DNA of 56,776 nucleotides. Source: Escherichia phage Seurat. Made by a program: the position numbers and the translations under genes. Under the pieces are notes generated by a model that worked only from the letters and a program-made list of their open reading frames with translations, was not told the DNA's origin and made no database searches. Position 1 is the stretch's first letter, and every line of letters begins with the position of its first letter. The stretch lies in sequence record NC_027378.1, one strand, 5' to 3'. Shown piece after piece: positions 46,594 to 53,547 of this stretch.

Positions 46594-46603
46594 ATAGCCT
46601 CCG

Positions 46604-46885
46604 ATAGGGTATTGCCTTAACCCTATGGTAAGACCCTCCCTATTAAATTGCAAGAGTTATTGTAAAACAATAGGTATAGGGTGCAATACAGGGTTCATAT
46701 AGGGTAACCCTATAAACACCCTATAAAATACCCTCCCTATGCAGCTTTCTAAATTTATAGTTTTAGTTTACCCCTTGCGCCCCCGCAGAAAAACTAAAGA
46801 TAGGGGTACTAGGGTAAACATTGGCAAATACCCTATACCCTACTCCCTATACTATGATTCTAAAAAATTTGGAGTATACCCCTAT
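46604..46885. repeat. iteron-like array of CCCTAT/ATAGGG hexamers (at least 12 copies, both orientations)
   Basis: Includes the palindrome TATAGGGTAACCCTATA near 46698-46714; about 0.14 copies expected by chance in 280 bp. Confidence 0.7.
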
Positions 46886-47060
46886 AAACTTATAAACTTT
46901 CAGTCAACTAACTAAAATAAAACTAATTAAACTAATATTAATAATAACTATAAATATATATAAAATAAGGATTTATTATTAATGTATATAGTACCTATTG
47001 GTATTATTTGACGAGTTTATGGTCATTATATAAACTCTATAAATTTTCATAAACCTGAAC
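46886..47060. other. AT-rich tract (candidate DNA unwinding element)
   Basis: About 175 bp almost devoid of G/C immediately after the iteron array; no ORF. Confidence 0.55.
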
Positions 47061-48518: not shown

Positions 48519-48604
48519 GGTATATTCCTTCTGTTAGATTGTTTAGTAGTCTTGCTAAGTTGTACTTATTATTGCCCACTAAGTTGAAGTAGGCAAGATA
48601 TAAA

Positions 48605-49108
48605 TCAGCTATTTCTGATATTCTTTAGAGCTTGTGTACAAAAGAAAACATCCAGCAAAACAAGTTTTCCGTCTTTTACCGCCACATTGCGGGGACTGAT
48701 TTCAAACCACATTTGCGGACCAATATTAGCGCAAGCATCCAAAGCTTCCAGGAGCACATCTTTAATGTCTTGAGCCAGGTCGCTATTACTGAAAGCATCA
48801 TATAGATAGCTATAGTTGTCATATGTGTTACGCGGCATCTCTAACCCTGCGCACAAGCTGCGGAGTTGTTTATAGAGTGCGTATTGCTCAGGTTGTAAAG
48901 AGCTTTTTAAGCTGCGGACACGAGGGTAATAATCCATTTCGTAGACACCTGTGTCTATCATTGTGACATGGGGAAATAATTCATGCTCAGGAAACCATCC
49001 CCACGCCATGCATTCTTTAATAGGGTCGCAAGATTTTAGAAGTACGCGACCTGAGTCTAGAAGGTATGCCTTGGTGAAAGCGCCCTTGCCAATTAGTTTA
49101 GTAGCCAT
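48605..49108 (-). CDS. small protein kinase-like protein (atypical)
   Basis: Start reset to MATKL... with RBS AAGGAG; Gly-rich loop IGKGAFTKAY, VLLK, EISPRNV catalytic-loop-like, LLDVF DFG-like. Confidence 0.4.
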   Translation of the reverse strand: MATKLIGKGAFTKAYLLDSGRVLLKSCDPIKECMAWGWFPEHELFPHVTMIDTGVYEMDYYPRVRSLKSSLQPEQYALYKQLRSLCAGLEMPRNTYDNYSYLYDAFSNSDLAQDIKDVLLEALDACANIGPQMWFEISPRNVAVKDGKLVLLDVFFCTQALKNIRNS

Positions 49109-49441
49109 GTTGTGCTCCTTAATGTGGTTAAGTAGTATTGCTTTGTTGAAGTAATAATAGCCTTGCATCGTGATATTGAATAGGCCAAAAGTGCTATTTT
49201 AGATCACTATTACATCTACAGCTTTGCAGTAACGCTACGCTAAAAATGCAAAGTCTTACGTTTGCTAAACATGTAGATTTTGTGCACATCACTCTTAGTA
49301 CGTATAACGTCTATTATGTTAAATAGCTAACCTATTGATTTATGGTATGCCCTACGTGCGGTTGGATGAATGTCGTGTCTAAGTCTTTGTTTTAAAAGGT
49401 GCTAAAAATTTGATGGTGGAAAACTGTAAAAGTACATGTCA

Positions 49442-49471
49442 TTAACTGACATAAAATGTTGTCAGTATAAA
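49442..49471 (+). promoter_or_regulatory. candidate rightward promoter with a palindromic operator in the spacer
   Basis: TTAACT-N18-TATAAA; spacer holds CTGACAT-aaa-ATGTTGTCAG. Confidence 0.3.
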
Positions 49472-49556
49472 TGCCACGTTTGGCCTAGACATAGATCAAG
49501 TCATGTCGTACTATATAGTCAAAGGAAAGATAAAGCCGAAAGGCGGAGGAAATAAA

Positions 49557-49706
49557 ATGAGAAAGTTTAAAGTCATGTGCTATGGTAACTACATTGGAGA
49601 CGTTAAAGCGCCGAACCGTGCGGATGCAGAAGGTTTCGTCCGCGCAGAGATGCAACTTGGAATTGCTGATTTTGCAGCTATTATTGAACTGGTAGAGGTA
49701 TTTTAA
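49557..49706 (+). CDS. hypothetical small protein
   Basis: Start reset to the ATG at 49557 with RBS GGAGG. Confidence 0.4.
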   Translation: MRKFKVMCYGNYIGDVKAPNRADAEGFVRAEMQLGIADFAAIIELVEVF

Positions 49707-49707
49707 T

Positions 49708-49851
49708 ATGACACGCAAATACAGGCTTACACGTGCACAGCACGCGTTATTATTGCAGGTTATGCGCATGGAGTACGAAGAGACTACATGGGCGCAAGCT
49801 ATGCAGACAGGGCGCGAGTTCTACGCGCAACTAATAGCACAAAATGCCTAG
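49708..49851 (+). CDS. small protein (47 aa), not in the ORF track
   Basis: TAATATG arrangement with the previous gene; RBS GAGG. Confidence 0.35.
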   Translation: MTRKYRLTRAQHALLLQVMRMEYEETTWAQAMQTGREFYAQLIAQNA

Positions 49852-49908
49852 ACAACATGATCGGTCTGGTGGATACTACACACATCAACCAAATAGTGGA
49901 GGTACAAA

Positions 49909-50094
49909 ATGTTAATCTTAATCATGATGGTCGTTGCGGTAGTGGGCCCACTGGTGGCACTGATTGTAACCGAAGTATGTGATGCTAAATGGGATCGCAA
50001 ATACAACGAAGTAATGGAACAGCGGTATGCAGAGCGCCGCGTAAGGAAATGGGAACAGCGCTATAACGCACACAGCGACACGCTAGCGAGCTAA
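49909..50094 (+). CDS. small membrane protein
   Basis: 61 aa; N-terminal TM helix; RBS GGAGG. Confidence 0.45.
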   Translation: MLILIMMVVAVVGPLVALIVTEVCDAKWDRKYNEVMEQRYAERRVRKWEQRYNAHSDTLAS

Positions 50095-50135
50095 TGTACA
50101 TAGGTAATGGTAATGCATTAGCTTGGGCGAAACAG

Positions 50136-53087: not shown

Positions 53088-53155
53088 TTGAAGAAAATAT
53101 CAAATATTGGAAAGGCTTTATTGACGAAATGTTGAAACCATTGGAGAAGAAATAA
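53081..53155 (+). CDS. translationally coupled micro-ORF (24 aa), not in the ORF track
   Basis: ATG overlaps the upstream stop (ATGGTGA) and its TAA overlaps the downstream ATG (TAATG). Confidence 0.35.
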   Translation: MVIEENIKYWKGFIDEMLKPLEKK

Positions 53156-53547
53156 TGCTATTAGTCGTCACCGGAGGTCGAGATTTTAAGCATGTGGAGT
53201 ATATTTACGCTCAATTGGATAAGCTGCATATGCAAAGAAGGATAACCACACTTCGCCACGGTGACGCTGACGGTGTTGACCGGATTTGCGCACATTGGGC
53301 GGAGCGCAACGGTATTAAAACAGAAGCATTCCCTGCCCCGTGGGACAATCTTTCCTTACCAAATACCAAGATACGGTATAATGCCAAAGGTGCTTATAAT
53401 GCACAAGCAGGCGCTTACCGCAACCAATTAATGCTGGATACTGATCCTAAACCAGATCACGCTATTGTGTTTCCTGGCGGAGCTGGTACTATGGATATGT
53501 ACAGACGGATTAAAGCATCCGGTATTCCTTACACTTTAGCGGAGTAA
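53155..53547 (+). CDS. SLOG/LOG-like Rossmann-fold protein (DUF2493-like)
   Basis: VVTGGRDF, GDADGVDR and VFPGGAGTMDM glycine-rich motifs. Confidence 0.45.
   Translation: MLLVVTGGRDFKHVEYIYAQLDKLHMQRRITTLRHGDADGVDRICAHWAERNGIKTEAFPAPWDNLSLPNTKIRYNAKGAYNAQAGAYRNQLMLDTDPKPDHAIVFPGGAGTMDMYRRIKASGIPYTLAE

Follow-up and report, generated by a model that had tools for sequence, protein, structure and literature searches.

Where does transcription of the two gene arms of Escherichia phage Seurat begin? We considered this question in sequence record NC_027378.1, the whole of which (56,776 nucleotides; one strand, 5′ to 3′) is referred to below as the window. The source genome, which looks complete, is that of a Seuratvirus (Queuovirinae) whose closest relative is phage VogelGryff. 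By the VogelGryff annotation, the leftward arm (approximately 21-49.1 kb) carries small genes and then the primase, DNA metabolism, 7-deazaguanine and polymerase genes, and the rightward arm carries approximately 7 kb of small genes and then the terminase and structural genes. The arms diverge exactly at a gap, 49109-49556, bounded by the leftward ATG at 49108 (Shine-Dalgarno [SD] sequence AGGAG, 49115-49119) and the rightward ATG at 49557 (SD GGAGG, 49545-49549). A previous sequence-only reading had described an AT-rich intergenic region of approximately 450 bp between the first leftward and first rightward genes, and had interpreted it as a divergent early control region with a promoter, TTAACT-N18-TATAAA, whose spacer contains an operator-like palindrome. 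The gap indeed measures 448 bp and is non-coding, in that a check for open reading frames (ORFs) revealed only tiny unsupported ones and none that is credible. Its GC content is lower than that of the whole window (35.5% versus 44.6%), but the AT-richness is only moderate, as is evident beside a stretch of 17-22% GC at 46.9-47.06 kb. The idea of a divergent early control region is supported by the position of the gap and by strong comparative evidence, namely conserved σ70-type promoters that face outward on each side, but the promoter named in that reading was not upheld. We consider it probable that back-to-back host-σ70 promoters, which we call P_L (leftward) and P_R1 (rightward), start the two arms, that each is fused to a 16-bp box, and that a further promoter, P_R2, belongs to the same family.

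The two ends of the gap carry the same architecture in opposite orientations: a box, an overlapping −35 hexamer, a 17-nt spacer, a −10 hexamer and an A seven bases further on. For P_L, the −35 is TATTCA (49177-49182, minus strand; a 3/6 consensus match) and the −10 is TATTAT (49154-49159, minus strand), which has the required A at position 2 and T at position 6; the σ70 match is 8/12. For P_R1, which was also reported by the promoter scanner, the −35 is TAGACA (49486-49491, plus strand; 5/6) and the −10 is TACTAT (49509-49514, plus strand; 4/6, with A2 and T6 as in P_L), a match of 9/12. The start (+1) of every promoter was predicted at the seventh nucleotide after the −10 hexamer. P_L would then start at A 49147, with a 39-nt 5′ untranslated region (5′UTR; 49109-49147, minus strand) that contains an invariant TTAACCACA and the SD AGGAG, and P_R1 at A 49521, with a 36-nt 5′UTR (49521-49556, plus strand) that contains the SD GGAGG. 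Each promoter is thus predicted to lie 36-39 nt upstream of a strong SD-ATG start. The distance from box to −10 is 21 nt in both, and the two regions form an inverted pair of 19 nt (49181-49199 and 49469-49487).

How well is this arrangement conserved? A similarity search with the gap alone returned 34 records, all from Seuratvirus, and we compared the promoters in 18 related loci together with the window (19 genomes). The P_L −10 is invariant in 19/19 genomes, and its −35 is identical in 17/19, the exceptions being TAATCA in STP-SP5 and TATTTA in KS_A3. The P_L spacer is 17 nt in the 17 listed copies, and the alignment of 19 genomes contains no indel there. The scan found P_R1 in 18 genomes, all of which have the same two hexamers and a 17-nt spacer, yet the spacer has at least 11 different sequences. 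In both promoters, the hexamers are more conserved than the spacer and flanks. Hexamers and spacing that are fixed, combined with a spacer sequence that drifts, are the signature expected of working promoters. The architecture and its conservation are direct observations; the start positions and the early timing are deduced from them, and the purine found at the seventh nucleotide after the −10 in 39 of 40 box-bearing copies is only suggestive for the start position. A divergent pair, Pl and Pr, has also been proposed from sequence for the equivalent gap of phage 9g (PMC4276943). In the proposed mechanism, P_L would drive a kinase-fold gene and then the replication arm, and P_R1 would drive the small rightward genes.

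The conservation differs along the gap. An 87-bp block (49117-49203, minus strand) comprising the P_L box, core promoter and 5′UTR has 80-99% identity in 34 Seuratvirus records, despite the fact that its left neighbour gene varies between phages, and the P_L 5′UTR is kept across relatives and in a duplicated cassette of phage yong3. The whole gap is common only to the window and five relatives (VogelGryff, SLUR76/26, SHIN8, WildeMaa and SLUR75), which we call window-type; the majority of relatives have a CAjan-type gap, and the two layouts form a mosaic. Over 48600-50100, the window has 92% identity to VogelGryff (Bas25), and parts of it match approximately 30 other Seuratviruses. Scans of IMG/VR with the P_R1 and P_L strings revealed no further relatives, the matches being slur01 itself and a chance match in coding DNA. 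We considered an ATG at 49168 as the start of a leader peptide or of a longer N-terminus; indels of 5 nt and 2 nt in relatives, together with its position upstream of where P_L is predicted to begin, ruled this out. The GenBank records of CAjan (locus L002, 3052) and SD04 (L010, 1052) begin the first leftward gene at the equivalent ATG. P_L is predicted to start downstream of this ATG, and the stretch in which the ATG lies has indels that are not multiples of three; the extended N-termini in these records are probably annotation errors.

P_R2, a third member of the P_L and P_R1 family, is predicted outside the gap (49835-49877, plus strand), where it precedes an ORF at 49909. It consists of the box TAGCAC-AAAA-TGCCTA (49835-49850), the −35 TAGACA (49849-49854) and the −10 GATACT (49872-49877), with a σ70 match of 9/12, a spacer of 17 nt in all nine genomes in which it was found, a predicted +1 at 49884 and a 25-nt leader. 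The hexamer GATACT is also the −10 of T7 A1 and lambda PL. P_R1 and P_R2 are alike in spacer and leader sequence. A conserved 47-aa gene (49708-49851, plus strand; phrog_37795) shares its last codons and its stop with the P_R2 box and −35, and at its end the constraints of coding and promoter would coincide. All copies of P_R1 and of P_R2 have a GATC in the 17-nt spacer, 2-5 nt downstream of the −35 (49493-49496 and 49859-49862 in the window), which might conceivably relate to Dam/SeqA or to dPreQ0 modification at GA; GATC is not enriched across the gap as a whole. In WildeMaa and SLUR75 (L006, 1905-2172; L005), a GC-rich non-coding leader of approximately 270 nt separates P_R1 from the first rightward gene; this leader has no Rfam match and a folding z of −0.66.

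What, then, is the box? Its consensus is T(A/G)(G/C)CAC-N4-(G/T)GCCTA, and its last two bases are the first two of the −35. The P_L copy is TAGCAC-TTTT-GGCCTA (49181-49196, minus strand; centre 49188.5) and the P_R1 copy is TGCCAC-GTTT-GGCCTA (49472-49487, plus strand; centre 49479.5); with the P_R2 copy (centre 49842.5), all three are centred at −41.5 from the predicted starts 49147, 49521 and 49884. Three copies occur in the window, where 0.29 would be expected; they all lie at promoters, inside a stretch of 670 bp, and the other 47.8 kb of VogelGryff contain none. Among relatives we collected 40 distinct copies in at least four promoter classes: P_L, the window-type P_R1, P_R2 and a CAjan-type class R′, with extras in STP-SP5 and yong3. 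Across these copies, information content is highest in the two 6-mers, and the central N4 is variable and A/T-rich. The −10 position always comes 21 nt after the box, and a canonical −10 is present in all classes other than R′; an A occupies the predicted +1 in 33/40 copies. In the CAjan-type P_R1, the core promoter is the same and the box is replaced by an A/T-rich tract resembling an UP element, the upstream element of strong promoters. The box is modular in this sense, the core being kept with such a tract in its place. Its sequence, register and conservation lead us to infer a regulatory role for the box, as a protein-binding site that overlaps the −35 at its upstream edge. That the box is confined to this locus is observed directly; protein binding and the sign of any regulation are predictions. 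It is the most informative element of the region and was missed by the sequence-only reading, as were the inverted pair of 19 nt and a dyad at 49436-49452.

Several observations weigh against this interpretation of the promoters and the box. First, the searchable literature contains no transcript or transcription start site (TSS) mapping for any Queuovirinae phage, and for Seuratvirus the literature searched yielded no study of promoters or TSSs. Second, the σ70 matches are moderate (P_L 8/12, P_R1 9/12, P_R2 9/12); sites of such quality are common, so the case for the promoters rests on conservation, to which recent recombination between closely similar phages could have contributed in part. 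Third, the P_R2 box overlaps coding sequence. Fourth, although the half-sites of the box have a 6-4-6 layout and lie one helical turn apart, their symmetry is only 4/6. Fifth, in the R′ class (CAjan, L002, 3130-3175, and equivalents), a rightward TAGCAC-TAAT-GGCCTA followed by ACTAAC lies approximately 50 bp from the P_L box and is succeeded by GTATTC or CTACGC, not by a canonical −10; it is kept in at least 11 distinct sequences, and by this pattern the box is not always joined to a working-looking promoter. Finally, no DNA-binding domain, including helix-turn-helix and ribbon-helix-helix domains, was found by Pfam in 20 neighbouring proteins.

Might the rightward arm start instead from TTAACT-N18-TATAAA, with a regulator acting on the palindrome in its spacer? 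The sequence exists as described (TTAACT, 49442-49447; an 18-nt spacer; TATAAA, 49466-49471; plus strand), scores 9/12 and is the sole site in the gap to reach at least 4/6 in the −35 and 5/6 in the −10; moreover, the half-sites of the palindrome are kept in five relatives. However, one such site in the gap is a chance-level count, the mean in composition-matched simulations being 1.7, and the window contains 108. The TTAACT is found in the source phage alone, and the TATAAA is altered in three of the five relatives (TATAGA in VogelGryff, CCGAAA in WildeMaa and SLUR75), while the downstream TAGACA-17-TACTAT stays unchanged. The spacer is 18 nt, and the site is absent from the promoter-scanner list because TATAAA does not end in the T expected of a −10. 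In the conserved architecture, TATAAA occupies −55 to −50 of P_R1, and a start from it would merely lengthen the P_R1 leader by approximately 43 nt. The promoter named in the sequence-only reading is most probably wrong, and we regard the model that makes it the main rightward early promoter as very doubtful.

The palindrome itself fared in part differently. CTGACAT-aaa-ATGTTGTCAG is present at 49446-49465 with a perfect core, CTGACA-N8-TGTCAG, but it is imperfect as written and does not exceed chance: perfect inverted repeats with 6-bp arms number three in the gap against 1.3 expected (p ~0.17). A perfect dyad, ATGTCA-ttaac-TGACAT (49436-49452; 0.01 expected per genome), is centred at −77 of P_R1 and is followed by a third half-site, TGTCA (49461-49465; approximately −58), so that the palindrome is made of half-sites two and three. 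The motif TGACA-N7/8-TGTCA is kept in the five relatives. The dyad arms are identical in all six window-type phages, the loops read TTAAC, TAAAA or TTTAC, and the centre stays at −76/−77 of P_R1. This combination of fixed arms, free loop and fixed position favours a predicted protein site that is tied to P_R1 and lies upstream of a promoter, not in a promoter spacer. The cluster of half-sites (ATGTCA/TGACAT/TGTCA, −85 to −58) would be a second, lineage-restricted site of P_R1. It is outside the P_R1 core and off the activator positions −41.5, −61.5 and −72, and it is absent from the CAjan-type gap, the majority type. The box is a stronger operator candidate than the palindrome.

Could the box-promoter units instead be mainly recombination cassettes, whose short stretches of homology serve as boundaries for swapping the adjacent genes, with a box that is kept by recent copying and serves no regulator? 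Near-identical blocks adjoin non-homologous genes, the spacers and leaders of P_R1 and P_R2 are similar, and the gap is a mosaic of window-type and CAjan-type layouts. Extra copies also occur in yong3 and STP-SP5. We observed these as additional cassettes of box, core and leader before other early genes, in yong3 (L008, 1020-1120, minus strand) with a perfect TATAAT −10 and in STP-SP5 (L011, 1098-1760) with four boxes, which suggests that the box-promoter cassette has been duplicated and moved. On the other hand, the 6-mers stay near 2 bits across diverged classes while the N4 and spacers drift, which argues for selection on specific bases and not only for recent copying, and the register of the box relative to the −35 and −10 is kept exactly. 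We consider cassette exchange unlikely as the main explanation; it is compatible with back-to-back boxed promoters and does not exclude them.

The position of the box raises the further possibility that its promoters are activator-dependent delayed-early or middle promoters, similar to those controlled by Mu Mor/C or by class II CRP/FNR, in which the box would compensate for a weak −35. A centre at −41.5 is the classical class II activator position, and the P_L −35 matches at only 3/6. The UP-like tract that replaces the box in the CAjan-type P_R1 also suggests that the box supplies upstream activation. Nevertheless, all three promoters at the heads of the arms carry the box, so at least one of them must fire on host factors alone; the P_R1 −35 matches at 5/6 and is identical with or without the box; and no activator gene was recognized among the neighbouring proteins searched. 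We therefore hold this alternative to be somewhat unlikely and return to early host-σ70 promoters, at which a phage- or host-encoded regulator would bind the box and touch or occlude RNA polymerase at the −35. Such a regulator could shut off the early promoters or activate them, and if the box is its site, all three early promoters would switch together.

Candidates for the identity of the box and its regulator were also considered. A σ54 promoter (TGGCAC-N5-TTGC) was rejected, since most copies read TAGCAC and the downstream GGCC is at the wrong spacing. A comparison by eye of the Fis, Lrp, CRP, FNR and LexA consensus sequences with the box and the dyad gave no convincing match. The 47-aa protein (49708-49851) was tried as a ribbon-helix-helix regulator; its AlphaFold2 (AF2) model comprises a disordered N-terminus and a two-helix hairpin, with no Pfam match and no significant fold match, which leaves this candidate unsupported. 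The "potential sigma factor" gp40 of 9g has no similarity to the 126-aa ORF of the window.

Between the two promoters lies an AT-rich segment of 232 bp (49204-49435) that is common to the five relatives only, CAjan-type phages having other sequence. It includes a weak inverted repeat, ATCTACA...TGTAGAT (49214-49278), and an invariant sub-block of approximately 50 bp (~49300-49347). Inside this sub-block, AATCAATAGGTTA (49328-49340, minus strand) matches the core consensus WATCAANNNNTTR of integration host factor (IHF) and is one of two matches in the window. Its centre, 49334, is the exact midpoint of the predicted P_L and P_R1 starts. The match is present in all six window-type phages at 187-188 bp from the predicted P_L start, exactly midway in the window, WildeMaa and SLUR75 and at most 5 bp off in the others. 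A bent, symmetric promoter region is a suggestion that draws on this post-hoc motif match. No internal promoter was accepted in the segment, as neither manual reading nor the promoter scanner found acceptable hexamers. A structured RNA at 49196-49300 was likewise rejected (z −0.2 and −0.4; 3/20 predicted pairs covary, in two lineages only). Rfam gave nothing at E ≤ 1 over 47-51 kb, and on three related loci it gave only two chance-level matches (E 0.22) to snoRNA models, on the conserved P_L block.

The candidate IHF site at the midpoint may bend the DNA. We speculate that the inverted boxes, 291 bp apart, could meet through this bend to form one looped complex that switches both arms. DNA modification may add a further layer. 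The CAjan enzyme DpdA replaces G with dPreQ0 in GGCC and GA contexts (PMC10484667). Because GGCC and GA occur in the sequence made up of the right box half and the −35, recognition could differ between modified and newly made DNA, and this difference could give a modification-dependent timing switch. The full combination, in which the box is the operator of a Seuratvirus-specific or host regulator at every early promoter, an IHF bend loops the two boxes and timing depends on modification, is a possibility that we consider decidedly unlikely.

Is transcription the primary role of the gap at all, or might it be a replication origin or a packaging or terminus site? The minimum of the cumulative GC skew, at approximately 47 kb, lies about 2 kb to the left of the gap. 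The physical genome end and terminal repeat of 9g have been placed in the equivalent gap (PMC4276943; Kulikov et al. 2014). In addition, the record of phage ECP2304 (OR880647.1) has identical first and last 3,695 bp (L007, 1-3695 = L020, 1897-5591); this exact duplication takes in the entire divergent promoter region together with the small leftward genes and approximately 1.2 kb of rightward genes, and may be either a direct terminal repeat carrying the earliest genes or an assembly overlap. Against a terminus, the ends of the duplication fall outside the gap, 2.4 kb from it on the left and 1.2 kb on the right, its beginning being approximately 60 bp to the left of the homologue of the AT-rich stretch (~window 46835), and the ACCAGG repeats of 9g and CAjan-type gaps are absent from the window. 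Against an origin, the gap has no DnaA box (TTWTNCACA) and no iterons, its repeats being short chance matches, and a better origin-like structure, with iterons and a stretch of 17% GC, is present at 46.6-47.06 kb. We regard an origin or terminus as an extremely improbable primary function of the gap and keep to divergent promoters as its explanation. With regard to the structure to the left, we observed at least 12 repeats of the ACCCTATA / TATAGGGT type, in both orientations, at 46600-46890, followed by 46890-47060 at 17-22% GC. These repeats and the AT-rich stretch adjoin the primase region at the cumulative GC-skew minimum, and by its sequence 46600-47060 has the textbook layout of iterons plus a predicted unwinding element.

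The first leftward gene (48605-49108, minus strand; phrog_11084) encodes a very small protein of 167 aa, and the sequence-only reading had called it kinase-like. At the level of fold this holds: the AF2 model (predicted local distance difference test [pLDDT] 95.5) resembles protein kinases and aminoglycoside phosphotransferases, the latter, including APH(2''), being the top Foldseek matches in the PDB (E 2e-4, prob 1.0, TMq ~0.42). At the level of sequence it does not, as searches of Pfam and PDB sequences gave no kinase match. Invariant residues are GxGxF, K31, E136..N141 (E136-x4-N141) and D153. At the by-eye equivalent of the catalytic-loop Asp of kinases, the protein has a Glu (FEISPRN). 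Approximately 370 homologues occur across diverse phage contigs, none of them annotated, and in other Seuratviruses the slot of the first leftward gene is filled by unrelated small genes. The first rightward gene (49557-49706, plus strand) encodes 49 aa, with no function assigned. Further along the early arm, 53155-53547 (plus strand) encodes a 130-aa protein with a YAcAr (YspA/cpYpsA-related SLOG) domain (E 5e-18). No tRNAs were found.

These results correct the most probable transcription origin of Seuratviruses, which matters for annotation, in that the first leftward gene is annotated in several GenBank records from a point upstream of the predicted P_L start. They also provide three precise predicted starts and two short DNA elements, and the compact, conserved early promoters could be used in engineering BASEL-type Seuratviruses. 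As a type of feature the region is unremarkable, and what the conserved box adds is a new but modest detail. If the box is a true operator, it offers a handle on the regulator that times the early genes in a group studied mainly for its 7-deazaguanine DNA; if it is not, the locus is a standard divergent promoter region.

How does this region compare with known systems? In 9g (Nonagvirus), a member of the same subfamily, a gap of approximately 0.45-0.6 kb also separates two diverging arms, as in the source phage. In 9g the promoters come from BPROM and cross each other, unlike those of the source phage, and both sets are predicted by sequence only. The 9g gap has no detectable sequence similarity to the source gap, all 34 matches of which are Seuratvirus, and instead of the box and dyad it has ATACCAGGTA repeats and a palindrome with 9-bp arms. 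We observed three to four copies of (A/T)ACCAGG(T/G)... in the gaps of 9g and of CAjan-type phages (L002, 3190-3300; L013, 1190-1340; L022, 3440-3520) and none in the window; in Seuratviruses these repeats are often followed by short GC-rich hairpins, the folding of which is not unusual (z −0.62).

In layout and position, the box resembles other regulatory sites. Class II CRP/FNR sites and the sites of Mu Mor/C consist of two half-sites approximately one turn apart that overlap the −35 on its upstream side and are centred between about −41.5 and −43.5. The sequence of the box is unrelated to the CRP, FNR, Mor and C sites, and its role as a regulator site is a prediction read from the DNA. Unlike Mor/C promoters, box promoters head both arms, so a phage activator cannot be required at all of them. 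As in control by Cro/cI or phi29 p4, symmetric operators at back-to-back promoters could switch both directions, and a bend of the p6/IHF type between the promoters of the source phage is plausible. Unlike in these systems, there is no adjacent repressor gene, the boxes are 291 bp apart and not clustered, and we found no evidence of lysogeny functions.

The early-promoter cassettes of T4 offer a further parallel. Mobile promoter-early stem-loop (PeSL) cassettes were reportedly described in T4 by Arbiol and colleagues in 2010. As with these, the repeated short early-promoter units of Seuratviruses flank small variable genes and have apparently been duplicated and shuffled; unlike them, they number three to four copies per genome at one locus, versus dozens, and no stem-loop was found. 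Finally, the predicted promoters resemble T7 A1 and lambda PL in their use of host σ70, in the GATACT −10 of P_R2, in the 17-nt spacing and in the UP-like tract of the CAjan-type P_R1, and differ from them in having weaker −35 hexamers and a GC-containing box in the place of the UP element.

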